In this document: positions 4,535 to 23,801 of the stretch, one piece after another
How positions within the stretch are numbered: the stretch's first letter is position 1
How the letters are laid out: every line of letters starts with the position of its first letter
DNA from: Acidilobaceae archaeon
Lineage (GTDB): Archaea; Thermoproteota; Thermoprotei_A; Sulfolobales; Acidilobaceae
Reading direction: 5' to 3'
Length of the DNA: 29,241 bases
Assembly: GCA_038824665.1 (NCBI GenBank)
Contig: JAWBBK010000001.1
Location: 476,410-505,650, forward strand
Notes under the pieces: model-generated
Told to the model about the DNA's origin: nothing
Databases searched by the model: none
Seen by the model: only the letters and a program-made list of their open reading frames with translations
Position numbers and translations under genes: made by a program

Positions 4535-4830
4535 CTCGTTTCCGACCTCCTTCTTGCAACGGACTCTAGGTATTTCGCTACGTAGAGATCTAACGTAAAG
4601 GTTAGTAGAACCAAAAAGAACGAAGCTACCGTAGGATAGTAGGAGCCTAAGTATAGAGCGAGAACGACCAAAAAGAAGCAGGTGTTGAAAGAGAAACTGG
4701 AAAGAGCTAAAACCATGTCGGGAACCGTTGGTCCTTTTATTATCCTAAATATATACAATGATGATGAAACTAAGTAAATAGGTAAGACAACATATGTGAA
4801 ACATAAATCCACAAGCGTCTTTAAGTCCAA
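4531..4830 (-). CDS. mnhF: Mrp/Mnh antiporter subunit F
   Basis: 99 aa, about 3 TM, RIIKGPTVPD and VAKYLE motifs; GAGGG upstream of TTG. Confidence 0.88.
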   Translation of the reverse strand: MDLKTLVDLCFTYVVLPIYLVSSSLYIFRIIKGPTVPDMVLALSSFSFNTCFFLVVLALYLGSYYPTVASFFLVLLTFTLDLYVAKYLESVARRRSETS

Positions 4831-5070
4831 CTGACTACCCTCGCAGAGACTGTACCTTCTACAAAAGCTTTCAAGTTGTTTTAGTTGCTGCGCGTACTTG
4901 AAATTGAGATAGGCATCAAGTGTATCAGGAAAGACTCGATAACGACAGAACAGCTACGGAGGAAGACTGAAAGACATACACAACTCTCGAGACCTACAAT
5001 AAGTGAATACTGAGGAAGAAACCCACGTCGACCTTATCTAGCGGACGCAGACAACCGCTCCCAATCAGGT

Positions 5071-6390
5071 CTAAATCTCATAAAAGTTGTACAATAACGA
5101 TAACCCTCCCACTATTAGAGCTAAGGAGAGAAGAGCTATAGAGACCAGAGGTCGAAGCGTTATCTCTCCTTTTCTCTTCGTTTCCCCGGTCCACACTATG
5201 TAAATGAAGCTTGTGGTAAGAGATGTCGCTAAAACGAAACACATCGCGAGAAATATGGTAATAGCTCCTGAAAGCAGAGACCCTGAAGGAGATAGCAATA
5301 CTACGAAGAGTTCGCTGAAGAACTTGAGAGAAGGAGGTGAGGGGAGTATCATAAAAAGAAGTGTGAGACCTAAGAAGTAGACTAGGGGGTCAGACTTCAC
5401 ACTACCTCTAAGCATCTCGAGATTTGAGCTACCGGAAGTTTTTTCGAGAACCCCCAAAAGAGTGAACCAAGCAGATTTGGATAATATGTACGCGATCGTG
5501 TAATACACAGCCGTTTCGAATAGACTAGAGACGCCTTCTGAGTTCTTGAAGAAACTACTCGCTAAGATCAGAAGAACGGAGTTGGTATAGATTATAGACG
5601 AAAACGCTAAGAGTTCTCTAGAACTCTTTGACGATAGTCCTTGGAGAGCTGAGTAGACCGCTGAAACAAGCCCTAAGCTTAGGAAGAGGAGAGTCGTTAC
5701 AAAGACCTCGTTAGACTCTGAGAGTGTTGGAATCATAAGAGTTTTACCCACTATCTTGAGCAAAAAGAACATAGTGGCTCCTTCGAGACAAACAGCTACT
5801 GCTCCTAGATGAGAAGGAAGAGCTGAATAGACTAGGACGAGCCAGAAGTGAAGAGGAACTATAGGAAGCTTTAGTAGTAATCCTAGAGCTACGAGAATTC
5901 CGGCTACTAAAGACCCTTCTCTAGTTACTTCGTTTATCCAAAAGCTACCTGTATCCAAATAAGCTATGAGGACTCCAAGAGCCACCAACATTCCTGAAGC
6001 CACAGTAAAGACAGCTAGAAGCGTTGCTGCTTTGCGACTCTCGACAGAGTTCTCGCTAGAAAAGAAGAGGTAGAGGATAAGAGGAAAGCTGGAGAGTTCG
6101 TAGAAGATCAACCATAAAATGAGGTGGTCCGAGCTAACAGCTAAAGCTAAAAGCAATCCCGTAGAGACTATTAGAGCTGAGCTTCTCGCCTTCAGTTCAA
6201 CTTCGAAATCCGTTGCTGAAAGAGCTACTGTAGCTAAAACTAAAGCTATTGTAGCAACGAACAGCAAAGCTTCTCGCTCGTAACTTATGAAAGCAAAGCT
6301 CTCAAAAACTCTGTCGAACGCTGAAACAGACATGAGAGACAAAAGCTCTGTCAACGTAGCTTCTAACTCGGTCACGTTCCAAAAGCGCAT
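5071..6390 (-). CDS. NuoM/MrpD-like antiporter-type membrane subunit
   Basis: 439 aa multi-TM; IFYELSS, LLKLPIVPLHFWL, LLAFSS and PPSLKFFSE (TM12 Glu as in NuoM). Confidence 0.75.
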   Translation of the reverse strand: MRFWNVTELEATLTELLSLMSVSAFDRVFESFAFISYEREALLFVATIALVLATVALSATDFEVELKARSSALIVSTGLLLALAVSSDHLILWLIFYELSSFPLILYLFFSSENSVESRKAATLLAVFTVASGMLVALGVLIAYLDTGSFWINEVTREGSLVAGILVALGLLLKLPIVPLHFWLVLVYSALPSHLGAVAVCLEGATMFFLLKIVGKTLMIPTLSESNEVFVTTLLFLSLGLVSAVYSALQGLSSKSSRELLAFSSIIYTNSVLLILASSFFKNSEGVSSLFETAVYYTIAYILSKSAWFTLLGVLEKTSGSSNLEMLRGSVKSDPLVYFLGLTLLFMILPSPPSLKFFSELFVVLLSPSGSLLSGAITIFLAMCFVLATSLTTSFIYIVWTGETKRKGEITLRPLVSIALLSLALIVGGLSLLYNFYEI

Positions 6391-6396
6391 AGAGCT

Positions 6397-7317
6397 TCAC
6401 CTAGCTACAAACATGATCCATAGAGTCAAGGTCACCACTAACGCTATGAGAGCTAGCACGTGATAACTGAAGTCTGCTCTCGCATAGCTTTCAGCTATGC
6501 GCTGAAGACGAAAAACAATGTCTTCAGATATGAGATAGACTCCTCTATAGCTCTCTTCGAGCTTTCTAGAGCTTTGAAAGACTTTTAATAGAGTCCTCCT
6601 AAAGTGACTAGAAACAGTTAGCGTAGTTAAGAGCACTACGTTTAGCATAAGTAGAGAGATCCCTTCTAAGAGTTTGTAAGCTAACTCAGCAACGGTCGGA
6701 ACTAAATTTAGCATAAGTAGAGAGATCCCTTCTAAGAGTTTGTAAGCTAACTCAGCAACGGTCGGAACTAAAGTCACGAAAACCGAGGCACTCTTCAAAC
6801 GCTCTAAGAGATACAACTCTAAGCTCTTTCTGTCTAACTTAAACACAAACAAGATGATAGTTAGTATCGTTGCTAGAAAAAAGGAAATAAACGGGTTATA
6901 GCGGTGAAGCAAAGCCATCGTAGCAACTAGAGACCAAACTGATGAAAACACAAAAGTTTTGAGAAGTCTGAAGCTTAAGACCGAGCTTTTGTAATCTGCA
7001 GAAGTCAACAAAAGTCCTAACGTCGATATAGCTACAAGAGCAAAAGTGAGAATCGACTCTAGCTTTATGTGAGTTAATACTACAGCGTAGTAAGGAACGG
7101 CTAGCAGTGTGAATACAGCTATCCCTTCTAGCACTATCACGCTAGGTTCTACAACCTCTTCTCTTAGGCCTTTAGCTAAAGACGTTAGATAAGCTGAGAG
7201 AGCTAGAGATATTAAGAGTTCTTGAGCTAAGTGATCGCCAAGTAATGCTATAGGAACAGTGACTACCGCTAGAAGCGTCAGAGCCTTTTCGGTTAAGTCG
7301 AGCAATCTCGAAATCAA
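6397..7317 (-). CDS. Hypothetical multi-pass membrane protein, possible lateral-helix subunit of the antiporter module; contains a 22-aa tandem duplication
   Basis: 306 aa hydrophobic; long amphipathic stretch followed by a single C-terminal TM; 6 bp from the next gene. Confidence 0.6.
   Translation of the reverse strand: MISRLLDLTEKALTLLAVVTVPIALLGDHLAQELLISLALSAYLTSLAKGLREEVVEPSVIVLEGIAVFTLLAVPYYAVVLTHIKLESILTFALVAISTLGLLLTSADYKSSVLSFRLLKTFVFSSVWSLVATMALLHRYNPFISFFLATILTIILFVFKLDRKSLELYLLERLKSASVFVTLVPTVAELAYKLLEGISLLMLNLVPTVAELAYKLLEGISLLMLNVVLLTTLTVSSHFRRTLLKVFQSSRKLEESYRGVYLISEDIVFRLQRIAESYARADFSYHVLALIALVVTLTLWIMFVAR
6641..6772. repeat. Perfect 66-bp tandem duplication (2 copies)
   Basis: 6641-6706 is identical to 6707-6772 (tttagcataagtag...gtcggaactaaa); encodes LVPTVAELAYKLLEGISLLMLN twice. 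Confidence 0.97.
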
Positions 7318-12286: not shown

Positions 12287-12967
12287 TTGATCGAGTACAT
12301 CCATTGTTTAGCTGTCCTCGTTTTTCTATCGATCGCGGGAATCATGGACCTCAGGTCGAGAGAAACGCCTCCTTTCCTCTGGGCGTTAGCAACCATTATA
12401 TCGATGCCCTTAGCCTTTTACTCTTATAGAACTCTAAGCTTGAGCTTTGTGCAGATAGTCATCTCGATTATGCTTTCGCTTTCTGTCACGCTTGTTGTGT
12501 ACGTTCTTTACAAAAAATGTATGATGGGAGGAGCTGACGTTTTGGCCTTACTCTTTCTATCTCTTTGCTCGCCTGTTCTACCGGACTCTATAGTCCCAGC
12601 TCCTTTTCTAACGATAATATATGCGTCTATACCTGGTTTCATATATCACGTCTACTCAGTCAAGCTGGTATGTAAAGACCTTAGCTGTTTCTTAAAACAT
12701 CGTTTCGAAGTTCCGGCTAAGAGGCTTGCTGAGGACCCTCGTTTGCGTTGGTGGATGATAGTTGATGGCGAAAGCTCCTGTGTAATAGACGTAGATACGC
12801 CTACGCTTGCCGCTTCTCTCGCTAGAGAAAACCCAGAAAGGTTGGTGAAAGCGACTCCAGGACATCCTTATGTGACTCATCTAGCTATAGGTTACGCTAT
12901 TGCTTGTGCTATCAAGGACTTCCCTATTCTTGCCTTATTAGTGACTATTCAAAGCCTCTCTTTCTAG
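12287..12967 (+). CDS. A24 family prepilin/preflagellin peptidase (FlaK/PibD-like)
   Basis: Membrane protein with both catalytic Asp motifs (IMDLRSRE, MMGGADV) and a C-terminal V.ATPG.P segment. Confidence 0.8.
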   Translation: MIEYIHCLAVLVFLSIAGIMDLRSRETPPFLWALATIISMPLAFYSYRTLSLSFVQIVISIMLSLSVTLVVYVLYKKCMMGGADVLALLFLSLCSPVLPDSIVPAPFLTIIYASIPGFIYHVYSVKLVCKDLSCFLKHRFEVPAKRLAEDPRLRWWMIVDGESSCVIDVDTPTLAASLARENPERLVKATPGHPYVTHLAIGYAIACAIKDFPILALLVTIQSLSF

Positions 12968-12996
12968 TCTAGTTAGATCGCAGAGGGCGATGTCTG

Positions 12997-14325
12997 CTGA
13001 GAGTGCTCTTGATTCATGCGGAAAGGTTCTCGTACAAGCCTGAGGCTGAAGCTCTAGAAAGTCCTCCAGATCCTCCAACGTCTAGAAGCTTTGAGAACTG
13101 TCTCGTAGTTTTTGTCTCAGTGGAAGAAGGCGATGGAGTCGAAGAAGCCAAGCTTGCCGCAATGGACGCTGTAAACCACGCTAGAATCATTAAAGCCGAC
13201 AGCATCGTGATCTATCCCTATGCACATCTCTCAAGCAGACTTGCGAGACCCGAAGAGGCCTATAAAGTGCTTCTAGAGATAGAGAAGAACGTCGCCAGCC
13301 TTTGGGACAAAGTAGTGGCTAGAGCTCCTTTTGGTTGGTATAAGTCTTTCGAACTCTCTTGCAAAGGACATCCTCTAGCTGAGCTATCTCGGTCTTTCAT
13401 AGGAGCCCAAGAGGTCAGATACAAAGGGGTAGCTTTTGAAGAAGTTGTCGCTAAAGGTCTAGCTGAGGAGAGTTATTTAAAGAAGAACCCATGGAGAAAA
13501 GATGTGCTTGAAACCTATTCTAGATTGAAATTCGATTCCCTTTGGGGAAGGAGAGCCAGACTCGAGTTAGAAGAGAGAGCTTGTAAGAAGTTAGAGCTGA
13601 AAAAAGTCTCTAAAGTAGAAGAACCTAAGTGGTTGTATGGACTTTGGGGAGTTGCGTCTTTAGCTTCTCTTTGTTCTAAGCTAGAGCCTGGCACTTTAGC
13701 CCTTTGGGGCGATTTGAGCGAGTCTTTAGCCTCAACTGCTCGAGACCCTCTAAACTTTCTAAGCGAGATAAGCCCAGAACTGCTCTCAAGACTTGAAGAA
13801 ATCAAATTAGGACCTGAAGCTCTAAGCGTCTCAGGACTTGAAGGAGTAGCGTATGCGTACAAGACCAGAGACGGAGGGTTAGCTCCTCTAGTATTCGATT
13901 TAGGTTCCATTAAGTGTGTCGGACCTTTCTCTTCGCTATTGCTAAGCCTCATCGATTTAGGGCTCAGAATAGCTGAAAGCGGTAAAACTCCTTACCTACC
14001 GTTCTGGCTTTCGCCCATTCAGATCGCTCTCCTGCCCGTCTCAGAAAAACAGTTGAGCTACGTAGAACGTGTTGTCAATGAGCTTGAAAACATAGAAGTG
14101 AGAGTTGTGGTGATGAAAGAAGGAGGGCTAGGCTCGAGGATAAGAGATGCCGGTAGAAGCTGGATTCCAATAGTAGCAGTTGTTGGAGACAGAGAGGTTG
14201 AAACCGAGACTCTTTCGATAAGAAAGAGATGGGAAGAAGGAAGACAAGAAGTGGTTCCTCTAAGCGAGTTTCTCTCTATTGTGAGAGACCTCAAGAAGAA
14301 GAACATACCTCAAGGTGAGTTCTGA
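12997..14325 (+). CDS. Freestanding threonyl-tRNA synthetase editing protein (archaeal editing domain plus anticodon-binding domain, no catalytic core)
   Basis: LLIHAE, IYPYAHLSS.LA, RAPFGWYKSF.LSCKGHPLAELSR; C-terminal LPFWLSPIQ...WIP...VGDRE; too short and lacking class II catalytic motifs. Start is CTG 12997 (MRVLLIH) or GTG 13003. Confidence 0.9.
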   Translation: MRVLLIHAERFSYKPEAEALESPPDPPTSRSFENCLVVFVSVEEGDGVEEAKLAAMDAVNHARIIKADSIVIYPYAHLSSRLARPEEAYKVLLEIEKNVASLWDKVVARAPFGWYKSFELSCKGHPLAELSRSFIGAQEVRYKGVAFEEVVAKGLAEESYLKKNPWRKDVLETYSRLKFDSLWGRRARLELEERACKKLELKKVSKVEEPKWLYGLWGVASLASLCSKLEPGTLALWGDLSESLASTARDPLNFLSEISPELLSRLEEIKLGPEALSVSGLEGVAYAYKTRDGGLAPLVFDLGSIKCVGPFSSLLLSLIDLGLRIAESGKTPYLPFWLSPIQIALLPVSEKQLSYVERVVNELENIEVRVVVMKEGGLGSRIRDAGRSWIPIVAVVGDREVETETLSIRKRWEEGRQEVVPLSEFLSIVRDLKKKNIPQGEF

Positions 14326-15548
14326 TGCAGTCAGTTAATGAAAGAAGAAACGAACTTAGTAAGAAAGTCGCTATAAGCTTAGTCTTCAGAGAGAACCCAG
14401 AGCTCGCGCTAAAGCTAAGAGAGTATATAAACAAACTCTTTGAGAAGCTGAAAGAAAAGAACGGCTCTAACTTTAAGCTCAAGATCATGGACTTCTGTGG
14501 TACACATGAATGGACCATAACTCATTATGGTTTAAGGAGCTTGATGCCTGAAGGACTAGAACTCGTAGCCGGTCCAGGCTGTCCTGTCTGCATAACTCCT
14601 TCTAAAGACGTAGAGGCAGTTGTAAAGCTCTCTCTTGAAGGCGTAACTGTCTACACGTATGGAGATGCCTATAGGCTGAGAGCTCTTAACCCCGTTAACG
14701 GAGCTTACTCGCTTTCTGACGCAAAGACGTTAGGAGGCGATGTAAGAGTAGTGACAAGCTTTTACGATGCTGTAGTAAATGCCAAAAAGCTCGGAAAAGC
14801 GTCTGTGTTCTTCGCTATAGGATTTGAAACTGTAGCTCCAGGCTATGCTAAAGCTCTGTTAGCTAGAGCTGTGCCTGAGAACTTGAAGATCCTCAGCTCC
14901 GTTAGACTCACGCCTCCAGCTATGTTCTATTCTTTGAGTATACTGAGAGAAAAGCCTCCAGAACCTCCTGTCATGGGAGTCATAGCTCCAGGCCACGTAT
15001 CGACGATCGTAGGAGCTAAAGCTTGGGTTCCTGTAGCTGAAGCTTTTGAGATACCGGTGGTGATAGCGGGCTTTGAGCCAATAGACGTGCTATTAGCTAT
15101 AGCTTCTATACTAAGACAGTTGCTTCAGAGAAAAGCTGAAGTAGAGATCGAGTACAAGAGAGCTGTGACGTTTGATGGAGATTTGAGCGCACAATCAGCT
15201 ATAGCTAAAGTTTTTGAAACCGTAGACGCTGCTTGGAGAGGTATAGGGTTTCTTCCAAGAAGCGGACTAGAGCTAAGAGAAGAGTACTCAGAATATAATG
15301 CGAGAAGAGAATATGGGATCAAGCCTGAAGGTCCTCAAGAATGGAGGAAGGACACACCGCCAGGTTGCAAGTGTGCAGAAGTGGTCTTAGGTAAAGCTAA
15401 GCCTACAGACTGTCCTTTGTTCATGAAGGCATGTACGCCAAGTAATCCCTATGGTCCTTGTATGGTATCTTCTGAAGGGACTTGCGCTATTTGGGCTCGA
15501 TTTGGCGGCTGGGCTGTTGAAGATATAGCTAGAGAACTAGAGATTTGA
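14325..15548 (+). CDS. hypD: [NiFe]-hydrogenase maturation protein HypD
   Basis: CGTHE, GPGCPVC, GFET, PGHVS and the C-terminal Cys cluster (C.C...CPLF...CMVSSEG.C). Confidence 0.97.
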   Translation: MQSVNERRNELSKKVAISLVFRENPELALKLREYINKLFEKLKEKNGSNFKLKIMDFCGTHEWTITHYGLRSLMPEGLELVAGPGCPVCITPSKDVEAVVKLSLEGVTVYTYGDAYRLRALNPVNGAYSLSDAKTLGGDVRVVTSFYDAVVNAKKLGKASVFFAIGFETVAPGYAKALLARAVPENLKILSSVRLTPPAMFYSLSILREKPPEPPVMGVIAPGHVSTIVGAKAWVPVAEAFEIPVVIAGFEPIDVLLAIASILRQLLQRKAEVEIEYKRAVTFDGDLSAQSAIAKVFETVDAAWRGIGFLPRSGLELREEYSEYNARREYGIKPEGPQEWRKDTPPGCKCAEVVLGKAKPTDCPLFMKACTPSNPYGPCMVSSEGTCAIWARFGGWAVEDIARELEI

Positions 15549-15564
15549 AATTAGGGTAGCTCTA

Positions 15565-15882
15565 ATGTGCTGGGGAACGCCCGCTATAATAACTAGAGTT
15601 GTTGACGACCTAGTTGCTGAAGTCGATTTCGGAGATGGAGTAACGAGAAGAGCGATCTTGGGACTGTCCTCCGATAAAGTCAGCTCTGGAGACGTAGTGA
15701 TCGTTCACGCTGGCGTGATAGTTTCAAAGCTAACGTATGAGGAGATCGAAGACCTAATGAGATATCTGTTAGAGCTCTCCTCTCTAGCTGGAGAAGACCC
15801 TCCACAAGACCTTATGAAGAAGCTCGAGAAAATCCTCGAGGCAGCAAAGACTGCAAAAGGAGGTAGCGGTAATGATCGATAA
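15565..15882 (+). CDS. hypC: Hydrogenase maturation chaperone HypC
   Basis: N-terminal MC.G.PA and GDVVIVHAG; extended helical C-terminus. Confidence 0.93.
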   Translation: MCWGTPAIITRVVDDLVAEVDFGDGVTRRAILGLSSDKVSSGDVVIVHAGVIVSKLTYEEIEDLMRYLLELSSLAGEDPPQDLMKKLEKILEAAKTAKGGSGNDR

Positions 15883-16918
15883 ACGCGTAAGGCTAGCCCA
15901 CGGTTCTGGAGGCGTGGAGATGCATGAACTCATAGAGAAGGTGATATTCTCTAAAGCCAAAAAGAAGAAGACTGAAGGAGGGCTAGGTATAGACCATCCT
16001 GACGACGGAGCTCTCATCCCTCTCGGCAACGGAGAGTATTTAGTAGTGTCTACAGATAGCTATACAGTAAACCCTCCTTTCTTTCCAGGAGGGAACATAG
16101 GGACTCTAGCTGCCTCCGGCTCTATAAACGATGTGCTTATGATGGGAGGAAGGCCTATAGCTGCTCTCGACTCTATAGTCGTAGAGGAAGGCTTTCCACT
16201 TAGCGATTTAGAGACCATAGTTCAGTCCATGCTTGAAGTTTTCAACAATGAAGATGTAGCTGTGATAGGTGGAGACTTTAAAGTAATGCCTAAAGGCTCG
16301 CTAGACAAAATAGTGATAAACACTACGGTTATGGGAGTAACTAAGAAGCCTATAGTCGATAGGCTTCAAGAAGGAGACAAGATAGTGGTGGCAGACTATC
16401 TCGGCGATCATGGAGCAGTGATTCTCCTTTTACAGATGGGATTAGAGAGCAGAGTCGAAGAGCTTGAAAGAGGAACGCTAAAAAGCGATGTGAAGTCTCT
16501 CACTAAGCTCATGTTGCCTCTGATAGAAAGATATGGAGAGTTCATACATGCTGCTCGAGACCCTACGAGAGGTGGGCTAGCTGGAGTTCTTAACGAATGG
16601 GTTAAAGGTTCAAGCTTCGCTATAGTGGTGAACGAGAGCGAAATTCCCATAAGAGCTCCAGTTAGAGACTATGCTGAAATGCTTGGAATAGACCCGCTAT
16701 ACCTGGCTAGCGAAGGAAACGCTGTGCTCTCTGTAGATAAGAGCATAGCCGATGAAGTAGTGGAGTTCATGAAAAGCTTGGGCTTTGAAAACGCTAGAGT
16801 TATCGGAGAAGTCAAAAAGAGCGAAAAGCGAGGAGGCTATGTGTTTATGAAGACCGTGGTTGGAGGTCTTAGAGTTCTAGAGCCGCCGAGAGGAGAGCTG
16901 GTTCCTAGAATATGTTGA
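15872..16918 (+). CDS. hypE: Carbamoyl dehydratase HypE
   Basis: LAHGSGG, STDSY.V.PPFFPGGNIG, GGDFKV, RDPTRGG and terminal PRIC. Confidence 0.97.
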   Translation: MIDKRVRLAHGSGGVEMHELIEKVIFSKAKKKKTEGGLGIDHPDDGALIPLGNGEYLVVSTDSYTVNPPFFPGGNIGTLAASGSINDVLMMGGRPIAALDSIVVEEGFPLSDLETIVQSMLEVFNNEDVAVIGGDFKVMPKGSLDKIVINTTVMGVTKKPIVDRLQEGDKIVVADYLGDHGAVILLLQMGLESRVEELERGTLKSDVKSLTKLMLPLIERYGEFIHAARDPTRGGLAGVLNEWVKGSSFAIVVNESEIPIRAPVRDYAEMLGIDPLYLASEGNAVLSVDKSIADEVVEFMKSLGFENARVIGEVKKSEKRGGYVFMKTVVGGLRVLEPPRGELVPRIC

Positions 16919-16927
16919 GGGTTTGAG

Positions 16928-17518
16928 ATGCCGAAACGGCTTCGTATAGGACCTTTGCTTCTTGAAAGAGAAGGTCTAGCTGGAGTTAGAATCTTCGACC
17001 TAGCAAGCGAAGTCGCGCTTTGTATAGACGTGTTAAGCCCAGAAGGCTGTAAGTATAAACTGTACACACACTCTCATCCTAACCATTTTCCTGAAAGAGC
17101 TCCACTTGACGCCTTTTCTCCTGCAGGTCCTTTTTTGGTTCGTCCAGGAGAGACTTTGAATCTGCCTCCTTTCGAGATCTTGACAGTTCATGCATATAAT
17201 AGAGAAGATCTGGGAAGACCTCCTAGACACAAAAAAGGAGAGAGCGTAGGCTATTTGGTATCTCATGGAAGACACAAAGTCTATCACGTAGGAGACTCAG
17301 ACCTAGTTTCTGAGATAGTGTCCTTAAGAGAGTTCAAAATAGACGTAGCGTTAGTCCCTATAGGAGGGAGTTCAGTTATGAACGTTGAAGAAGCCTTTGA
17401 GTTCGTGAAGAGCTTAAGGCCTTCGATAGCTGTACCGATACACTACAGCTCTCTAAGAGATGCTGAGAAGTTCAAGCTTCTTTCACATGTCTACACTCAA
17501 ATAGTAATCTTGTCTTAG
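16928..17518 (+). CDS. MBL-fold metallo-hydrolase
   Basis: THSHPNH (HxHxDH variant), YHVGDS, LVPIGG and VPIHY motifs. Confidence 0.8.
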   Translation: MPKRLRIGPLLLEREGLAGVRIFDLASEVALCIDVLSPEGCKYKLYTHSHPNHFPERAPLDAFSPAGPFLVRPGETLNLPPFEILTVHAYNREDLGRPPRHKKGESVGYLVSHGRHKVYHVGDSDLVSEIVSLREFKIDVALVPIGGSSVMNVEEAFEFVKSLRPSIAVPIHYSSLRDAEKFKLLSHVYTQIVILS

Positions 17519-17529
17519 AGGGCTCAGCC

Positions 17530-19332
17530 GTGGAGCTAGTAGTCCCTCCCTCTATGAAGTACAACGTCGTAGCTCCTGAAGAATATATCAAGATCCAGAG
17601 AGAGACGATCGCAAACCTTGAGAGCTTTTGGGCTTCTCAAGCTCTTCAGCTATCGTGGAAAAAGCTGTGGGACAAAGTCTTAACTGGTAACGGACCTAGA
17701 GCTAGATGGTTTGAAGGAGGAACTCTCAGCCCTTATTTTAACGTAGTCGGAAAACACGCTTTAGGAGAAACGGCTAACAAGCCGGCTTTGATAGAGGAAG
17801 ACGAAGAAGGAACGTCATTTATAGCGAGCTATAGAGAGCTCGATCTTTTTGCAAGATCTATCGCCAAGACTTTTCGAGAACTAGGAGTTTCCTCTAGAGA
17901 CTGGGTTCTGATCTATGCACCTTCATCTATCGAAGCTGTGTCCACAGCTCTCGCATCTATGATGCTAGGAGCTCCTGTAGAGTTTGTCTTCACAGGATTT
18001 GGTTGGTGGGAGTTAAGAAGAAGGATTAAGAACAGAAGACCTAAAGCAATCGTAGCCTTCGATTCCCTGACCAGAAGAGGAAAGAGAATAAGTCTCTTAG
18101 AGAACTTGAAGAGAGCTCTCGAAAACGTTGACGTAAAGCCTGAGGTCTTTGTAGTCGAGAAGTTGAGATCTTCTCCAAAAGAGTGGAGAAGTTTCGACGA
18201 GCTCCTCGAAAAAACTTCGCTAACTGAAGAGAGCGTTGTAGAGTCCTCTCATCCTCTTCTAGGATTTCATATAGGATACGAAGAGAGCTTTAAGCCTCTA
18301 ACTCACGGAGTTGGAGGCTACTTAACTCAAACGGTTTCAATCACTCGCTGGCTTGGTCTCAGGTCTAGAGACACTTTGTTCTGTACGGTAGGACTAGGAT
18401 GGATAACGGCTGTCTCTCACTGCTTTATAGGAGCTCTATCCGTCGGATCGACGATACTTGTGTATACAGGAGCTCCAGACTATCCTGATTGGGGACGTTG
18501 GCTCGAGCTGATCGACTACTACTCCGCTACGGTCTTTTTGACTACAAGTTCTGCTCTCAGACTGATCTTAAAGAAAACTGATGTGAAAGATCGCGAGCTA
18601 GACTCACTTAAAATGATCGTTACAACAGGCGAGCCTATGGAGGAAAGCCTTTGGTGGAACGCTTATCTAAAGCTTGGTTCAGGGTCTTCGCCTCTCATAG
18701 ACTCAATCCCTAGTAAAACAGGAAGGATCCCTGTCTTCAATATGTACATCCAAACAGAGATAGGGAGCTTCGCTACAGGAAATCTGCCAAGTTCCGCTTT
18801 CGCTCCTATAGCTCCAGGTTCAGCAGGTCTTCCGTTGCTAGGACTTGCTGTAGATGTGACCGATGAGAGCTGTGCTTCTCTAAGAGGAGAATGGGGAAGG
18901 CTGGTCTTGAGAAAGCCTTGGCCTGCTCTCCCTGTAGAGAGTCCTGAAGAGTTTGAGAGAAGCTGGAACGGAGATTGCTACGATACTGGAGATCGCGCTT
19001 TAATGAACGAACTAGGCTATATCTATATCAAAGGAAGAAGAGATACAGTCATAAAAGCTAGCGGTTACAGACTCAGCCCAGGAGCCATAGAGTTCGCTCT
19101 CGAAGAGATCGGAGTTACGAGAAGAGCCGTGGTTTTCGGAGTTCCTGATGAAGAGAGGTTTGAGGTCATAGCTGTAGCTACAGAAGGCGGTGAGCCTTCT
19201 TCTATAAAGAAGGCAGTTAGAGAGCTCATAGGACCTATAGCTGAGCCCTCTCTAGTCCTCCAGCTAGAGGAATTCAAGGGTGATAAGAAATCGCTACGGA
19301 GAGAGCTGAGAGAAAAAAGTGTAATGAGGTAG
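17530..19332 (+). CDS. Divergent AMP-forming acetyl-CoA synthetase-like (ANL superfamily) protein
   Basis: ACS-like FW...A..L.W, WFEGG.L, VFTGF, GWIT, QTEIG, YDTGD and GRRDTVIKASGYRL; the P-loop and C-terminal Lys motif are degenerate. Confidence 0.8.
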   Translation: MELVVPPSMKYNVVAPEEYIKIQRETIANLESFWASQALQLSWKKLWDKVLTGNGPRARWFEGGTLSPYFNVVGKHALGETANKPALIEEDEEGTSFIASYRELDLFARSIAKTFRELGVSSRDWVLIYAPSSIEAVSTALASMMLGAPVEFVFTGFGWWELRRRIKNRRPKAIVAFDSLTRRGKRISLLENLKRALENVDVKPEVFVVEKLRSSPKEWRSFDELLEKTSLTEESVVESSHPLLGFHIGYEESFKPLTHGVGGYLTQTVSITRWLGLRSRDTLFCTVGLGWITAVSHCFIGALSVGSTILVYTGAPDYPDWGRWLELIDYYSATVFLTTSSALRLILKKTDVKDRELDSLKMIVTTGEPMEESLWWNAYLKLGSGSSPLIDSIPSKTGRIPVFNMYIQTEIGSFATGNLPSSAFAPIAPGSAGLPLLGLAVDVTDESCASLRGEWGRLVLRKPWPALPVESPEEFERSWNGDCYDTGDRALMNELGYIYIKGRRDTVIKASGYRLSPGAIEFALEEIGVTRRAVVFGVPDEERFEVIAVATEGGEPSSIKKAVRELIGPIAEPSLVLQLEEFKGDKKSLRRELREKSVMR

Positions 19333-19859
19333 TTCTAGTCGGCGTTGGGAACAAACTCTTCAGTGATGACGGTATTGGGAGCTGTTTAGCTGAAGCTGTC
19401 TCTAAATGTCATAAAGACTTCGAAATAAGGGTTTATGAAACTCTAGGGCTCTGGGAATTAGATGTCTTTCAAAACAAGAAGCTCGTGATATTTGTAGATG
19501 CCGTTAGCGAAGAATTCGAAGCTCCTAAGGTGATGAAGGTAGAAAGCAAAGGTCTCAGCACAGAGGAGCTAGCTATAATAGCTAGCTCTATAGACCCTCA
19601 TGACGTAGCTCCTTCAACTCTCGCTCTTATCGCTTTAGCTAGCGGAACTCTAAAAGGAGACTGTTACATCATCGGAGTTCCCATTGAGAGTTTAGAACTC
19701 GGCTTTAGAGTTTCTCAGAAAGCTCTAAACGGAGCCTTAGCGTCTTTGAAGTACGTAGAGCTTCTCTTAGAAAAATATGGTTGTAAAGTCGAGTTAAACA
19801 AAGCCTGTATAGAAAAAGAGATAGAAGAGAGTTGTAGAAATCAGAGCATAGCAATATAA
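19290..19859 (+). CDS. Hydrogenase maturation endopeptidase (HycI/HybD/HoxM family)
   Basis: In frame upstream of the ORF-track start (19485) lies VVLVGVGNKLFSDDGIG, followed by VIFVDA and DPH. No ATG/GTG/TTG between the in-frame stops at 19281-19286 and this motif; ATC 19290 follows AGGGTGAT. Confidence 0.85.
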   Translation: MATERAERKKCNEVVLVGVGNKLFSDDGIGSCLAEAVSKCHKDFEIRVYETLGLWELDVFQNKKLVIFVDAVSEEFEAPKVMKVESKGLSTEELAIIASSIDPHDVAPSTLALIALASGTLKGDCYIIGVPIESLELGFRVSQKALNGALASLKYVELLLEKYGCKVELNKACIEKEIEESCRNQSIAI

Positions 19860-19889
19860 TTAGGCTGAACGAAAACCAGTGATAAGGCT

Positions 19890-20639
19890 ATGGTGTTGGT
19901 AGTGAGCATAATAAGAGCTGTGTGTGAACAAGACGAGTACTGCTACGTAGAGCTGTGGAGCTTCACAGAATCCCTCAAAGAGCTCGATAGAAAGCTTGAT
20001 GACATTAAAATAGAAGGATCTCTAGGAGTTTCTGCTCCGATAGCTGTTAGCGTTCCCGAAGAGACTCTAAGCGAGATGAGCGATAAGCTTTTCGAAGCTC
20101 TTAGAGACCTAGGCTATGATGTAGATAAAGAAAGCGTAGAAAAAGGGGCTAGAGGCTATTACTCACCTGAAGACCAAGCTTCCTCTTTTGCCTCTTTTGC
20201 TTTCAAAAGACTGCTTTACAAAGTCTCAAAGAGTTCTCAACATCAGCTTCTTTCTAAGCCTTGGACCGAAACCCGTTGTCCCGTTTGTGGTCTCGTACCT
20301 ATCGCATCTATTGAAGAGTTTGAAGATGAAAAAGCTCCAAAAGTTAGATATAAATGTATGTGTGGTAACTCCTGGGAGTTCGATCACTTCGTGTGTCCAA
20401 ACTGTAAAAACGATAGAGCTGAAGACTTTGAAATACAACATGTAGGAAGAGTGCCTGTATACATCTGTAAGAAATGCGGTCACTTAGTTTTAATGGCTAA
20501 CTCTAAAGACATAGTCTCTCCAGGAGATGAAGAGGTATTGCCAATAGTAGCCGCTATCGCTATAAACGCTATGATGAGTTCTGAAGAAGAGGAAGACTTT
20601 ATAGAATCTCCTGAAGGAGATGAACACGACGAGACTTAG
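19890..20639 (+). CDS. FdhE-like Cys-rich accessory protein
   Basis: CPVCG, CMCG, CPNC and CKKC pattern as in the FdhE C-terminal half; acidic tail. Confidence 0.7.
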   Translation: MVLVVSIIRAVCEQDEYCYVELWSFTESLKELDRKLDDIKIEGSLGVSAPIAVSVPEETLSEMSDKLFEALRDLGYDVDKESVEKGARGYYSPEDQASSFASFAFKRLLYKVSKSSQHQLLSKPWTETRCPVCGLVPIASIEEFEDEKAPKVRYKCMCGNSWEFDHFVCPNCKNDRAEDFEIQHVGRVPVYICKKCGHLVLMANSKDIVSPGDEEVLPIVAAIAINAMMSSEEEEDFIESPEGDEHDET

Positions 20640-20673
20640 CTCTAAGCTCCAATAGGTAGGAAACGCGTAAACT

Positions 20674-21708
20674 CTAAAGGTAGTATTTATCTTCTTCATG
20701 CTCTTTTATCGGTAACCTAGGAAGAGGTTCTTTCTTAACTTCTCTAGCGAGCTTCCAGGCTACATACTTAGTCAAAGCTCTAGGCGTAAGTCTGGAAAGT
20801 AATCCTATTAAGAACGGGATCTTGAGCTTAGCTCCAGCGGCTCTTGGATGTCCTCCTCCTCCTAATCTTCGAGAGAGAGCTTGAACGTCAACTGTTCTGC
20901 TACGTAAAGACAAACCCCCGTTAGGTCTGACTACACAAACCACGTCTGCTGAATACCTAGCCATAAGTATAGCAGCAAGTATTCCGTTTGCAGGAGGACC
21001 TTCGTCTTTAAGAACTACCGCTATCCGTATTCCATCGACTTCAGTTAAAGAGACTGTAGAAAGAGTTCTTTTCACGTTCTCTAGCTCCAACGATATGTAC
21101 TCTTCAAGTCTTGAAGCCAATTCCTCGTCCCAGAGAACGCCGCTGACCAGTTTCTCCAAGACTTTGAGCTTCCATTTATAGCTAGACTCCTTAGCTCCTA
21201 CGGCTCTAAACAGCTTAGGAGAGTAAGGATTGTTCCACTTCCAAAGGTCTGCAGAACATACAACATCTACAAGGTTTTTGATGTAATCATCAGCAGAGTT
21301 TTGCCATAAAGAGGATGCATATTTAGCGACTACTCCCGTAGCGCAAGTGGTTCTATCTATAAACAGATTGACTCCAAGCTTTCTGAGCGCTTCTATTTCG
21401 CTATTGTTCCAGACGTGATGGTCGTACCACTCTATCCTAACCCCTTTGCTGATTAGTGAGGAAACGGAGTCGAGAAGTTCTCTCCAGTGCTCTGGATTGG
21501 TCCCTAGGTCGCTTACCGCTATGCAGTCGTTTCGAGAGACATGTTCAATAAGATTAGAGAATACTAAGTGTAACTCGTAGGGTTCTGCAAACGCTACTGT
21601 AGCGTCGTAACCAAGCTTTCTTTCAGCTATTCTAAGGAGCGTTGCTGCTGCTCCAACTCCGTCTAAATCTGTATGAGTTACTATGAAGAGATGATTGCAT
21701 TTACTCAT
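20674..21708 (-). CDS. DHH/DHHA1 family phosphoesterase
   Basis: THTDLDG, SDLG, YDHH, SLRSR and GGGGHPRAAG motifs. Confidence 0.92.
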   Translation of the reverse strand: MSKCNHLFIVTHTDLDGVGAAATLLRIAERKLGYDATVAFAEPYELHLVFSNLIEHVSRNDCIAVSDLGTNPEHWRELLDSVSSLISKGVRIEWYDHHVWNNSEIEALRKLGVNLFIDRTTCATGVVAKYASSLWQNSADDYIKNLVDVVCSADLWKWNNPYSPKLFRAVGAKESSYKWKLKVLEKLVSGVLWDEELASRLEEYISLELENVKRTLSTVSLTEVDGIRIAVVLKDEGPPANGILAAILMARYSADVVCVVRPNGGLSLRSRTVDVQALSRRLGGGGHPRAAGAKLKIPFLIGLLSRLTPRALTKYVAWKLAREVKKEPLPRLPIKEHEEDKYYL

Positions 21709-22238
21709 CTAGACTCCCCTAGAGTTTCAGAGAAAGCTTTTCTAAGAATAGACCAAGTGTCTGAAAGAAGCTGAGGCATAACCTTAGTCTTCCCCACCAC
21801 GACCATGAAGTTAGAATCTCCGAACCACCTAGGTACTACATGAAGATGGAAATGACCAGGAACGCCTGCACCAGCTACTTCTCCTATGTTAGCTCCTACA
21901 TTAAAGCCATGAGGTCCAAACGCTTTTTTAAGAGCCTTCACGCTTATCGCTAATAGCTCGAAGATCTCGATAGCCTCTTCTTTAGAGAGGTCTTCAGGTG
22001 ATGCTATATGGCGATATGGAGCGATCATGATGTGTCCTGTGTTGTAGGGATACTTGTTTAAGATCGTATAAGCTAATCTGCCTCTATACACTATCAAAGC
22101 TTCCTCATCACTAAGACGTGGAGCACTACAAAAGATACACTCTCTGTTCTCACTCTTACCTGCAGACCTAGCTACATCTTGAACGTAAGCGAGTCTCCAC
22201 GGAGCCCAAAGCACTTCGATACAAGGCTTTTCTGTCAA
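21705..22238 (-). CDS. HIT family hydrolase (Fhit/Ap4A hydrolase or phosphorylase-like)
   Basis: LWAPWR, CIFC, LNKYPYNTGH and AGAGVPGHFHLHVVPRW.GDSNF; ATGA overlap with the DHH gene. Confidence 0.93.
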   Translation of the reverse strand: MTEKPCIEVLWAPWRLAYVQDVARSAGKSENRECIFCSAPRLSDEEALIVYRGRLAYTILNKYPYNTGHIMIAPYRHIASPEDLSKEEAIEIFELLAISVKALKKAFGPHGFNVGANIGEVAGAGVPGHFHLHVVPRWFGDSNFMVVVGKTKVMPQLLSDTWSILRKAFSETLGESR

Positions 22239-22334
22239 CTGTTCTCCACACCTCTAAGCTATCTTCAACTCTCTCATCGGAAATTAATAAGATTCAAGAA
22301 GAAGCTACAGGTCGTTTCCTCTTACTGTTGAGGT

Positions 22335-22386
22335 CTGTCAGGTCCCCACTCTTCATCTATCAGTCTTCGGCAAACTCTTCATCCCT
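22335..22386 (-). ncRNA. Box C/D methylation guide sRNA candidate
   Basis: Minus strand: GG-ATGAAGA-gtttgccgaaga-CTGA-tag-ATGAAGA-gtggggac-CTGA, i.e. C, D', C', D boxes in about 50 nt of the ftsY-HIT intergenic gap. Confidence 0.75.
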
Positions 22387-22440
22387 ATAGAGCGTAGCCG
22401 AAGGAGCCTAATAGAGTTCTGTCGCGCTGAGGCTTACGAG

Positions 22441-23352
22441 CTAGTCAAGACCTCGCAAAAGCTGTTCTATAAACTCTTTAGAGTTGAAAGGCTTAAGGTC
22501 TTCATAGCTCTGACCTACTCCCAGATATAATATCGGCTTGTTTATAGTCGCTACCACAGATATCACGACACCGCCTTTGGGATCAGCGTCAGCTTTAGCT
22601 ACTATCACTCCATCAACTCCTACTCCTTCATTAAAAGCTCTAGCCTGTTCTACAGCGTCGTTTCCAGTCAGGGAGTCTACGACGAGCACTTTTAAGTTAG
22701 GTTTGACCACTCTCACGACTTTTCTAAGCTCTTGCATTAAGTCTTCATCTACATGAAGCCTTCCAGCTGTATCCGCTAAAACAACACATAGCCCTCTAGA
22801 CCTAGCGAAGCCTATAGCGTCTACCACAACGCTAGCAGGGTCAGCTCCGTATCTCCCTTTAACTATTGGAACTCCTATTCTTTCTGCATGAACTGCCAAC
22901 TGTTCTTGAGCTCCAGCTCTGAATGTATCAGCAGCTGCTATCACGGGCCTAAGGCCTTTAGACTTCATCATATAAGCTATTTTGGCTATTGTCGTAGTTT
23001 TTCCGACGCCGTTGACTCCGAAGAAAACTATAGTGTAAAGAGACCTAGAAGAACATGCCTTAGCGCACTCCTCTAAGATGTTGATGGACTCAATGGAGAA
23101 CAGTCTCTCTAGCTCTCTTCTCAAAACGTCTACGACTGCAGACTCTGGTTCTCCAAATCTCTGAACTCTAACTTCGCGTAACTTCATAGCTACTCTTTCA
23201 GCTATGAGTTCTGAGACATCTAGCGCAACATCTGCTTCAACAAGCTTTAAGATTAAGTCTTTGCGAATCTCTTCGATCTCTTCATCTGAAAGGCTTCTAT
23301 ACTTGACTCTTTCTACCAGCTCTGAGAAGACCTTCCTGACTCTGTCGAACAC
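22441..23352 (-). CDS. ftsY: SRP receptor FtsY
   Basis: GVNGVGKTTTIAK, DTFRAGAQEQL, DTAGR, DSLTGND and K.D.D.KGG motifs. Confidence 0.98.
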   Translation of the reverse strand: MFDRVRKVFSELVERVKYRSLSDEEIEEIRKDLILKLVEADVALDVSELIAERVAMKLREVRVQRFGEPESAVVDVLRRELERLFSIESINILEECAKACSSRSLYTIVFFGVNGVGKTTTIAKIAYMMKSKGLRPVIAAADTFRAGAQEQLAVHAERIGVPIVKGRYGADPASVVVDAIGFARSRGLCVVLADTAGRLHVDEDLMQELRKVVRVVKPNLKVLVVDSLTGNDAVEQARAFNEGVGVDGVIVAKADADPKGGVVISVVATINKPILYLGVGQSYEDLKPFNSKEFIEQLLRGLD

Positions 23353-23801
23353 TACTTCTTCCTCTCTGCTTGAGAAGCTGTGAGCTGTTGAAGAAGTAAA
23401 GAGTAGTTGTTATATAGAGAGACCAATTGTGAAAGAGTTTTAGAAACAGCCTCGATGCTCTTCTCTATCTTAGCTCTCCTCCCTTCTAAAACCTTTACAG
23501 CCTGGTCTATAGAGAGTCTTGCATAAATGTTGAAACCTAAGAAGACTAACGCTTTTCCTTTCTCTATAGAAGTTGCTGTAAGCGCTGCATTATATTTAGG
23601 GTCTAAAAATATAGTCAGTTGTTCTCCTGCTTCACTCATACTCTTTAATCCAGCGATAGCTCTTTCAAGGCTCTCCTTTTCTTCTACCAATTTTCTTAAG
23701 TTGTTTGTCATCAGCTCTATGCGTTCTCTCAAGACTTCTATGTTTAGAAGTAAAGTCCTTATGTCCTCTTCTAGTCTCTTCGAGTCTAAATGAGAACTCA
23801 A
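23352..23801 (-). CDS. pfdA: Prefoldin subunit alpha
   Basis: Coiled coil/beta-hairpin/coiled coil with V.LG.NIY; conserved position between rpl18a and ftsY. Confidence 0.85.
   Translation of the reverse strand: MSSHLDSKRLEEDIRTLLLNIEVLRERIELMTNNLRKLVEEKESLERAIAGLKSMSEAGEQLTIFLDPKYNAALTATSIEKGKALVFLGFNIYARLSIDQAVKVLEGRRAKIEKSIEAVSKTLSQLVSLYNNYSLLLQQLTASQAERKK

Follow-up and report, generated by a model that had tools for sequence, protein, structure and literature searches.

An MBL-fold protein and an acetyl-CoA synthetase-like partner form a putative accessory factor of [NiFe]-hydrogenase maturation in thermophilic Thermoproteota

The hyp operon of an Acidilobaceae archaeon contains two adjacent genes, encoding an MBL-fold protein and an acetyl-CoA synthetase-like protein of the ANL fold (ACSL), both of them undescribed in the literature that we searched. 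We consider it fairly probable that the two proteins constitute a heterodimeric accessory factor in the maturation of the [NiFe]-hydrogenase cofactor, with the link to maturation based on gene context. Most likely, the pair acts in addition to a complete set of HypA, HypB-type, HypC, HypD, HypE, and HypF proteins and is a feature of a single hyp-operon lineage among thermophilic Thermoproteota.

In the window (the entire stretch of 29,241 nucleotides analyzed), seven genes are tightly packed on the plus strand in the order hypD-hypC-hypE-MBL-ACSL-protease-zinc-ribbon gene. The preliminary description of a one-strand operon with overlaps or gaps of at most 30 bp was borne out by the coordinates of all seven genes and by profile matches, provided that the protease gene starts with an ATC codon. 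HypD (14325..15548; 407 aa) is identified by Pfam HypD (415 bits) and TIGR00075 (375 bits; cut-off 192.8), and HypE (15872..16918; 348 aa), which ends in PRIC, by TIGR02124 (345 bits; cut-off 251.6). HypC (15565..15882; 105 aa) begins with MCWGTP and matches Pfam HupF_HypC with 55 bits (cut-off 28.5); its TIGR00074 score is just 26 bits, below the cut-off of 48. They are followed by the genes of the MBL-fold protein (16928..17518; 196 aa; Lactamase_B_3, 54.7 bits, cut-off 24), ACSL (17530..19332; 600 aa; AMP-binding, 127.8 bits, plus ACAS_N), a hydrogenase maturation endopeptidase (19290..19859, with the probable ATC start), and an FdhE-fold zinc-ribbon protein (19890..20639; 249 aa; four Cys pairs). 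Intergenic spacings are +16 bp (hypD-hypC), −11 bp (hypC-hypE), +9 bp (hypE-MBL), +11 bp (MBL-ACSL), and +30 bp (protease-zinc-ribbon gene). Upstream on the same strand lies a gene for a threonyl-tRNA-synthetase editing-domain protein (13003..14325; tRNA-Thr_ED, 139 bits, plus HGTP_anticodon), whose stop overlaps the start of hypD by 1 nt and which is also the neighbor in a sister genome.

The first ATG, GTG, or TTG codon of the protease gene is at 19485, 152 bp past ACSL, but no stop codon interrupts the frame from 19287 onward, and 5′ of 19485 it encodes the conserved motif GVGNxLxxDDGxG of the N-terminus. The probable start is an ATC codon at 19290, which in the alignment coincides with the GTG start of the sister genus and is shared by a second genome of the same genus; it would give an overlap of 43 bp with the 3′ end of ACSL. 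The 124-aa piece obtained TIGR00072 at 25 bits, below the cut-off of 47.45, and the 184-aa reading yielded no Pfam match.

The arrangement is not a product of chance, as 24 of the 30 ACSL loci in the order share the sequence hypE-MBL-ACSL. Of the 325 genomes of the order, 30 contain a member of the ACSL clade. In 27 of the 30 loci, a hyp gene lies no more than 1.5 kb away, and the three others are truncated by the end of a contig. The three remaining arrangements (one locus each) are hypD|MBL-ACSL, hypE-(degenerate MBL)-ACSL, and ACSL|hypD. In a species-wide collection, 33 of 35 loci are hyp-linked, and among the members with readable flanks in both sets, none was found outside hyp clusters. 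The two genes, which had been noted as unexplained enzymes amid maturation genes, are thus a conserved part of hyp clusters. Co-occurrence with hypCDE across Thermoproteota, proposed earlier as a check, was examined, and linkage is kept both in the order and beyond it. ACSL is found also in records of Pyrobaculum, Vulcanisaeta, Caldivirga, Thermofilaceae, and Methanomethylicia, where the gene orders are rearranged but still hyp-linked: hypA-hypB-ACSL-hypE-MBL in Pyrobaculum oguniense TE7, hypD-C-F-E-MBL with divergent ACSL in Vulcanisaeta, hypA|ACSL|NikR-MBL in Caldivirga, and hypF-D-C-E-MBL-ACSL in Methanomethylicia.

Within the order, the MBL clade (members scoring at least 180 bits) occurs in 25 genomes, 24 of which also encode ACSL; the remaining genome has a contig end at the expected position of the ACSL gene. 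One carrier (G282) has ACSL adjoining hypD and no MBL gene nearby. HypE is encoded in 28 of the 30 ACSL-bearing genomes; in the 96%-complete G007, which has just a broken piece of ACSL at a contig edge, neither hypE nor hypF was found. Of the 209 genomes of the order that encode HypE, about 181 do so without the MBL-ACSL pair, and maturation in general can thus proceed in its absence. All 24 ACSL-linked HypE proteins, including that of the window, fall into one clade of 31 rows (SH-aLRT 98), which suggests a single origin of the ACSL-linked hyp operons. Part of the conserved synteny could therefore be a legacy of common ancestry within a single operon lineage instead of a result of selection, although the rearranged gene orders in Thermoproteales argue against this. 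The pair does not track hydrogenase type; a large subunit of the PF00374 type was found in just 5 of the 30 carriers (E ≤ 1e-25).

ACSL cannot be an ordinary acetate-activating enzyme. Its scores are below both curated acetate-CoA ligase cut-offs (310 versus 657 and 303 versus 725 bits). Judged by identity, it represents a distinct clade, whose members share 42-67% of their residues before identity falls sharply to about 30-34% with canonical ACS, a paralogue of which is encoded elsewhere in the same genome. The ATP-phosphate loop (TSGSTGKPKG) is missing in all 38 ACSL sequences examined, 36 of which show H-x-[GA]-Y at this site, followed by a short run of mostly acidic residues. The canonical C-terminal lysine motif (PKTRSGK) is likewise present in none of the 38, and about six end before that point. 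At least 90% of them keep E368-P369, Q408, E410, D488, G502-R503-D505, G512-R514, and R564; the core motifs QSE, TGD, GRxD, and SGxR are retained, as is the Arg of VRxxxGP, a residue that in bacterial Acs contacts the phosphate of CoA. Ile stands where the canonical acyl-pocket motif has its second Trp, so that the acyl pocket should not be smaller.

The MBL-fold protein (model pLDDT 95.7) carries the motif HSHPNH (HxHxxH) together with H101, D123, and H172. The full HxHxDH motif is kept in the copies of Vulcanisaeta and Pyrobaculum oguniense, whereas all metal ligands are lost in three or four lineages (genus g7, G122, G030) that have kept the gene and its interface motif, as would fit an obligate subunit. 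Models of the MBL-ACSL complex scored 0.83, 0.84, and 0.83, against 0.00 for the best of three controls; 116 of 157 solved complexes attain this mark, as do 2 of 215 mismatched pairs, counts that are rough since own alignments were used. At least 91% of the contacts are common to the runs, the pLDDT of the partners is at least 89, and the interface includes the N-terminal strand of the MBL-fold protein and its conserved C-terminal QPYTQV motif. The two proteins therefore probably form one complex, as far as can be judged from the models.

The loss of the phosphate loop and lysine motif, together with the retention of the core motifs, suggests that ACSL is most likely a binder of an AMP- or CoA-type ligand, capable of thioester-type chemistry only. 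It might hold a small acyl group (formyl, carbamoyl, or similar) or pass it to or from a thiol, for which CoA and the C-terminal Cys of HypE are candidates; activation of a free acid with ATP would not be its step. The MBL subunit could supply a metal-dependent hydrolytic or eliminating step, and the pair might serve CO supply, CN supply, or proofreading. Considering the motifs lost from the ANL-fold protein and the metal ligands lost from several MBL copies, it may be that neither protein is catalytic.

This leads to an alternative that is unlikely but deserves weight, namely that the pseudo-enzymes serve as a non-catalytic scaffold or chaperone, which at high temperature stabilizes or bridges Hyp complexes or the apo large subunit. 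It agrees with the loss of hallmark motifs in all ACSL, the persistence of metal-free MBL copies, the confident heterodimer model, and the names of all carriers, which are those of thermophilic Thermoproteota; however, His/Asp ligands in most MBL copies (with the full HxHxDH in those of Vulcanisaeta and Pyrobaculum oguniense) and the many conserved nucleotide-core residues of ACSL are unexpected of a pure scaffold. Somewhat less probable still is that ACSL makes or holds formyl-CoA or a formyl-S-HypE and that the pair releases CO to the iron of HypCD, as an anaerobic counterpart of HypX. The cited passages of PMC12134894 describe the CO source in anaerobic maturation as unresolved and discuss formyl-CoA, formate, and CO2. 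The proximity of the pair to hypE in most arrangements, the thioester-side motifs of ACSL, and the metal site of most MBL copies would suit such a synthase, but the pair is missing from most hyp-bearing relatives, the MBL-fold protein is metal-free in some carriers, the acyl pocket should not be smaller, and Pfam reveals no homology to HypX domains. Of the formyl- or acyl-CoA route to CO suggested in the preliminary description, ATP-dependent acid activation is unlikely because ACSL lacks both motifs required here (38 of 38), which weakens this route; a role in CO supply itself is conceivable but unsupported.

The pair might also be metabolically unrelated to maturation (e.g., acyl-CoA-handling) and have hitch-hiked in one hyp-operon lineage. 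Its presence in just about 14% of the hypE-bearing genomes of the order and the restriction of linked HypE to one subclade, which implies partly inherited synteny, point in this direction, but other observations make this reading improbable: the linkage has persisted through four or more arrangements of gene order and strand in different taxonomic orders, every clade member whose flanks can be read belongs to a hyp cluster, and the genome already encodes a canonical ACS. Least credible is a replacement of HypF, in which the ANL-fold protein would make carbamoyl-adenylate for HypE. The idea arose because an ANL-fold gene adjoins hypE in a window that, as correctly noted, lacks hypF, hypA, and hypB, but their absence only reflects where the window ends. 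The same genome encodes a full-length HypF with all five domains (G000:C1:18707-20977; 744 bits), which excludes the substitution; hypF, hypA, and an adjoining ParA/NUBPL (Mrp/MinD-type) ATPase, the candidate HypB, lie next to a [NiFe] hydrogenase outside the window. No hypB of the TIGR00073 type was detected in the genome, which is 83% complete. Moreover, hypF is present in 27 of the 30 ACSL-bearing genomes of the order and in four of five carriers tested outside it, in several cases within the same cluster, and the adenylation motifs are lost in ACSL. A substitution of HypF by ACSL is thus contradicted.

The accessory factor favored here differs from each of the known systems that it resembles. 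ACSL has the fold of AMP-forming acetyl-CoA synthetases (8rpk, 1pg3/1pg4, 1ry2) and the same succession of domains (ACAS_N, AMP-binding, C-terminal domain). It aligns with them along almost its entire length at about 30% identity (207 bits for the best PDB match) and has the same QSE, TGD, GRxD, and SGxR motifs, but lacks TSGSTGKPKG and PKTRSGK, has an insertion of 13-14 residues ahead of the QSE motif, and is hyp-linked wherever flanks are readable, with an MBL partner. The MBL-fold protein has the compact fold of small stand-alone hydrolases of the UPF0173 type (closest folds 3kl7, 3x2z of T. maritima, and Igni18 6hrg; Foldseek E 1e-13 to 1e-11, TM 0.75-0.81), and most hyp-linked copies have the His/Asp metal ligands. 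However, it scores below the NF001911 equivalog cut-off (64 versus 144), falls short of the target chains by about 30 residues, carries Asn, Arg, or Lys instead of the Asp of HxHxDH in most copies of the order, forms a clade of its own that a gap in score sets apart from its paralogues, and has a predicted obligate partner in ACSL.

The zinc-ribbon protein (model pLDDT 87) resembles FdhE (2fiy) in its helical N-terminal part and paired Cys-x2-Cys ribbons, and two chains of 2fiy are the sole Foldseek matches at E ≤ 0.001 (E 1e-4), but the TM scores are merely 0.45-0.48, the FdhE profile scores are far below their cut-offs (PF24859, 18 versus 27 bits; NF002925, 24 versus 426), and the gene follows a hydrogenase protease within a hyp operon. 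A homolog is named FdhE in one source. The sole molybdopterin oxidoreductase found in the genome is encoded about 300 kb away. Downstream of ACSL, protease and zinc-ribbon genes are confined to four loci, those of the family whose genomes encode, in addition, a PF00374-type hydrogenase, presumably of the uptake type. The earlier hint of a formate-hydrogenase system is therefore weak: the FdhE-like fold speaks for it, the confinement to these four loci against it.

HypX, the aerobic CO-ligand synthase, combines a formyltransferase with a crotonase-type domain and has no homology to the ANL-fold and MBL-fold pair, whose carriers mostly bear names of anaerobes. Nevertheless, in the cited passages of PMC12134894 and PMC6802093, HypX likewise appears as an extra enzyme-like protein that some organisms encode together with hyp genes, and it handles a CoA thioester.

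The hyp operon of the Acidilobaceae genome (1.10 Mb, 83% complete; window at G000:C1:476410-505650, with G000 denoting the source genome) comprises seven consecutive ORFs on the + strand (14325-20639). HypD (NCBIfam, 375 bits versus a cut-off of 192.8; Pfam also well over cut-off) is followed by HypC, which exceeds the Pfam cut-off (55 versus 28.5), scores below that of TIGR00074 (26 versus 48), and has the N-terminus MC, and by HypE (345 bits versus 251.6), whose C-terminus is PRIC. The next two genes encode a 196-aa protein with a metallo-beta-lactamase fold (MBL; 16928-17518) and a 600-aa acetyl-CoA-synthetase-like protein (ACSL; 17530-19332); a hydrogenase-protease-like ORF (probable start 19290) and a 249-aa zinc-ribbon protein with four Cys pairs complete the set. 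The tight one-strand run outlined in the preliminary description is confirmed, with successive spacings among the ORFs of +16, -11, +9, +11, and +30 bp and a probable overlap of the protease gene with ACSL.

Upstream of the operon (13003-14325), there is a stand-alone threonyl-tRNA-synthetase editing-domain protein that combines tRNA-Thr_ED with an anticodon-binding domain and lacks the catalytic core; its gene reaches 1 nt into the start codon of hypD, and the sister genome has the same neighbour (69% identity). The minus strand carries an Mrp-antiporter-like set (695-6390; two MrpD-like proteins and MnhE, C, B, G, and F), which is not flanked by hydrogenase catalytic subunits, and a 306-aa ORF without a Pfam match (6397-7317), whose neighbours are the Mrp-like genes on one side and a flavin-reductase-like gene on the other.

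Members of the ACSL clade (E ≤ 1e-100) are present in 30 of the 325 species genomes searched in the order of the source genome, representing 9 of 97 genera and 6 families. The corresponding counts in the same order are 209 genomes for hypE, 216 for hypF, and 62 for a large subunit of the PF00374 type (E ≤ 1e-25). When the 30 ACSL loci are read with flanks of 1.5 kb, 24 of them have the order hypE-MBL-ACSL. One locus each has the arrangement hypD|MBL-ACSL, a 184-aa ORF between hypE and ACSL that profile comparison identified as a degenerate MBL (probability 98.9%), and ACSL|hypD without MBL (genome G282, in which two neighbouring ORFs are both negative against the MBL profile); three loci are cut by a contig end. 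The two ACSL genomes in which hypE was not found (28 of 30 have it) both carry ACSL at a contig edge. The pair shows no association with the type of hydrogenase; a PF00374 match at E ≤ 1e-25 was found for only 5 of the 30 carriers, and a tie to uptake-type hydrogenases was rejected on this basis.

Signs of module decay are seen in two loci of genus g21 (L023 of genome G030 and L025 of G040). hypE is in pieces or contains a stop, ACSL of G040 is interrupted by a TAG codon, and the MBL of G030 is devoid of any metal ligand; the matching 184-aa ORF of G040 presumably is as well. In G050, a third genome of the genus, the genes are intact, and the defects could be assembly errors or gene decay.

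A scan of a collection of 185,579 species yielded 80 loci, 35 of which were assigned to the ACSL clade (at least 40% identity); many of these are from the same genomes as the 30 loci of the order, and others bear names from other orders. Of the 35 loci, 33 contain hyp genes, the other two starting within ACSL, and 27 contain MBL. The order is hypA-hypB-ACSL-hypE, adjoining hydrogenase genes, in Pyrobaculum oguniense TE7 and two relatives, with MBL next in the two loci that extend that far. ACSL of Vulcanisaeta is divergent from hypD-hypC-hypF-hypE-MBL, and Caldivirga sp. MU80 has hypA|ACSL|NikR-MBL. The arrangement is hyp(F)(D)CE-MBL-ACSL in Thermofilaceae, Infirmifilum, and Ignisphaera, and hypF-D-C-E-MBL-ACSL in a Methanomethylicia MAG. 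The view that the pair works with Hyp proteins rests mainly on its linkage to hyp genes, which is kept through such reshuffling of gene order. Two loci have further features: the NikR-type nickel regulator of Caldivirga sp. MU80 (L086 10841-11257), located between ACSL and MBL, lies beside a CCG-domain protein, and a Desulfurococcaceae MAG has a second, partial MBL-like match upstream of hypF (L085 2863-3213) besides the copy adjacent to hypE.

The history of the operon is reflected in a tree of 44 HypE sequences (quick search, SH-aLRT support only, three long branches), which comprise 24 ACSL-linked copies and 20 ACSL-free copies; the latter were selected by hand, not at random, from about 181 so as to cover different families. 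A single clade of 31 members (SH-aLRT 98) contains every linked copy together with seven ACSL-free copies, whereas the remaining 13 ACSL-free copies fall outside it. The synteny is therefore partly inherited, and the tree fits a single gain of the MBL-ACSL pair in one hyp lineage with subsequent losses. Among the 20 ACSL-free loci, 13 have hypF within the same 15-kb stretch as hypE.

ACSL is an ANL-fold protein, with 127.8 bits against AMP-binding PF00501 (cut-off 29.9) and 51 bits against ACAS_N, and aligns over its full length with solved chains of acetyl-CoA synthetase (ACS). Its scores against the acetate-CoA ligase models TIGR02188 (303 versus 725 bits) and NF001208 (310 versus 657 bits) are less than half of the cut-offs. 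In a search of 5.8 billion proteins, 16 further clusters match ACSL with 42-61% identity (456-861 bits), beyond which the match list drops to canonical ACS at about 32% identity or lower; matches in the ESM Atlas are generic AMP-binding clusters only. A canonical ACS paralogue with 34% identity to ACSL is encoded in the source genome as well. By sequence comparison, ACSL is a clade of its own and not an ordinary synthetase.

Sequence motifs were compared among 38 clade sequences (22 locus ORFs and 16 database clusters, with some duplicate rows) and 8 canonical ACS. The phosphate-binding loop rich in Ser, Thr, Gly, and Lys, which we take to be motif A3 of ANL proteins, is present in all 8 canonical ACS but missing from all 38 clade members, 36 of which have H-x-[GA]-Y at this position, followed by a short, mostly acidic stretch. 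Also missing from all 38 is the canonical PKTRSGK motif (about six of the sequences stop ahead of it), which corresponds to A10, presumably the C-terminal catalytic lysine motif; the Lys-rich GDKKSL stretch in ACSL of the window aligns with it only uncertainly. At least 90% of the 38 sequences retain residues E368-P369, Q408, E410, D488, G502-R503-D505, G512-R514, and R564, which also occur in canonical ACS, and the nucleotide-core and hinge motifs QTE/QSE, TGD, GRxD, and SGxR are present in the clade. Another 49 positions are clade-specific, including E151, H247, Y250, and K509. Based on the structures of bacterial Acs, we assume that the lost motifs are those for the ATP-dependent adenylation step, whereas the retained ones bind nucleotide or CoA or belong to the domain hinge.

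The fold of MBL is supported by a match to Lactamase_B_3 (54.7 bits) and a model with a pLDDT of 95.7, which has 149 PDB matches at E ≤ 0.001, with those listed being largely MBL-fold proteins. The UPF0173 model NF001911 matches only the C-terminal part (64 bits versus a cut-off of 144). The copy in the window has HSHPNH, with Asn replacing the Asp of HxHxDH, plus H101, D123, and H172. HxHxxH is present in 22 of the 25 MBL copies of the order, most of which have HxHx(N/R/K)H plus His, Asp, and His; the full HxHxDH occurs in the copies of Vulcanisaeta and Pyrobaculum oguniense. In genus g7 and in genomes G122 and G030, all metal ligands are gone, but the gene and a C-terminal QPYTQV-type motif are retained. 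A clade profile separates MBL members (at least 180 bits) from paralogues (at most 140 bits) and recovers the clade from 25 genomes of the order; ACSL accompanies it in 24, and the remaining genome has a contig end at the expected site of ACSL. An intermediate relative (G316:C137:1028-1570; 140 bits) comes from a genome in which no match to the ACSL clade was found, and it could represent a remoter form of the pair.

Structure prediction supports the view that MBL and ACSL bind each other. The modelled complex scores 0.83, 0.84, and 0.83 in three runs, which share at least 91% of their contacts, with a partner pLDDT of at least 89, whereas three controls all score 0.00; the mark applied, which 116 of 157 solved complexes but only 2 of 215 mismatched pairs pass, is only roughly calibrated here because custom alignments were used. 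To our knowledge, no ANL-MBL complex has been solved, so a score derived from a memorised structure seems unlikely. The predicted interface joins the N-terminal strand (residues 1-8) and the C-terminal motif (residues 183-194) of MBL to residues 82-106 of ACSL and a few around 280-359. Such binding would account for the retention of metal-free MBL copies. No fused forms were found among 7999 longer candidates for the MBL profile or among 78 ACSL relatives of 330-1050 aa, a negative result that counts as weak evidence.

The preliminary description had emphasized the absence of hypF, hypA, and hypB. They are missing from the window, but hypF, hypA, and an Mrp/MinD-type ATPase are located about 460 kb from the operon on the same contig, so that their absence is an effect of the window's end. 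In this second cluster, the genes for the ATPase (ParA/NUBPL type) and HypA diverge from a row that encodes a small [NiFe] subunit, a membrane protein, the large subunit (623 aa), a 190-aa ORF, and HypF. We assume that an ATPase of this type can serve as archaeal HypB; the classical hypB model found nothing in the source genome (83% complete). The 190-aa ORF (L051 10130-10702, equal to G000:C1:18129-18701), located between the large subunit and hypF, has no Pfam match and occupies the position where relatives carry a second maturation protease. Contig 3 (locus L052) contains a respiratory-complex-type [NiFe] module with a subunit of the complex-I-49-kDa/[NiFe] type and Mrp subunits.

The genes downstream of ACSL have a narrower distribution; among the 30 loci of the order, protease and zinc-ribbon genes lie 3' of ACSL only in the four loci of the family of the source genome. 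In the sister genus, hypA, hypB, hypD, hypC, hypE, MBL, ACSL, protease, and zinc ribbon are all located beside hydrogenase structural genes. No ATG, GTG, or TTG precedes the conserved N-terminal motif in the frame of the protease (window 19287-19485). The gene probably starts at the ATC at 19290, overlapping ACSL by 43 bp, because this codon coincides exactly, in the alignment, with the GTG at which the sister-genus protease starts and is conserved in the second genome of the genus; a run of six A (19313-19318) lies inside the overlap. The ORF carries GVGNKLFSDDGIG, a conserved N-terminal Asp motif. A 124-aa piece reaches 25 bits against TIGR00072 for HycI/HybD-type maturation endopeptidases (cut-off 47.45), the 184-aa reading has no Pfam matches at E 0.01, and tblastn gives weak matches (23-31% identity) that adjoin the large-subunit gene of hydrogenase at loci of the Pyrobaculum type or, in other genomes, lie within hyp loci.

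The zinc-ribbon protein was previously described as FdhE-like; the only fold match of its model (pLDDT 87) at E ≤ 0.001 is FdhE 2fiy (E 1e-4, TM 0.45-0.48), whereas its scores are far below the cut-offs of the FdhE models TIGR01562 (16.5 versus 187.65) and NF002925 (24 versus 426). It is FdhE-like by predicted fold and a putative member of the FdhE family at most. The four Cys pairs are conserved in all six sequences. A function with hydrogenase instead of formate dehydrogenase is conjectural; a single molybdopterin oxidoreductase was found in the source genome, encoded about 300 kb away.

The analysis establishes MBL and ACSL as a conserved pair of genes that is almost always linked to hyp genes and exists in addition to a full Hyp set, with both adenylation motifs lost from ACSL and a confidently modelled heterodimer. 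We infer that the MBL-ACSL pair is an accessory factor of [NiFe] cofactor maturation. It would most likely act near HypE and bind a nucleotide or a CoA-type ligand without ATP-dependent activation of an acid, with an MBL subunit that would have a structural role in all lineages and a catalytic one in most. A purely structural role of the pair is a rival explanation, for which the metal-free copies and the predicted interface have to be set against the metal ligands kept in most copies of MBL. An unrelated pair that hitch-hikes with the hyp genes is another; here, the inherited part of the synteny stands against the linkage retained in rearranged loci. Substitution for HypF, as initially proposed, was rejected. 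The source genome encodes a five-domain HypF (744 bits; G000:C1:18647-21001), hypF was found in 27 of the 30 carriers of the order (all except G007, G148, and G269) and in 4 of the 5 carriers tested from other orders, and Pfam searches of ACSL and MBL found none of the HypF domains (acylphosphatase, zinc fingers, YrdC-like, Kae1-like).

A specific role of the accessory pair in CO supply, also raised initially, is improbable. As an O2-free enzyme for the CO ligand, ACSL would be confined to thioester-type chemistry and carry a formyl group, held on CoA or the C-terminal Cys of HypE, and the metal site of MBL would free CO to the HypCD-bound iron. HypX presumably consists of formyltransferase-like and crotonase-like domains; neither Pfam domain was found in the 13 ORFs scanned (12287-23801, including all seven operon genes). 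A 2025 review (PMC12134894) describes the anaerobic source of the CO ligand as still open. Six Hyp proteins are considered sufficient for anaerobic assembly of the NiFe(CN)2CO cofactor.

Within the openly accessible article texts covered, which include the genome papers of Thermoproteus tenax and Pyrodictium delaneyi, the presence of the pair in hyp clusters is not mentioned. Whichever step it serves, this conserved, previously undescribed two-protein unit of hyp operons is a concrete new candidate, and its carriers include the sequenced isolates Pyrobaculum oguniense TE7 and Caldivirga sp. MU80. ACSL is also an unusual case of protein evolution; all members examined have lost the two adenylation motifs of the ANL fold, but the protein is conserved together with an MBL-fold partner. 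The partner resembles small, stand-alone MBL hydrolases, such as 3kl7, 3x2z of Thermotoga (with nickel), and Igni18 (6hrg).
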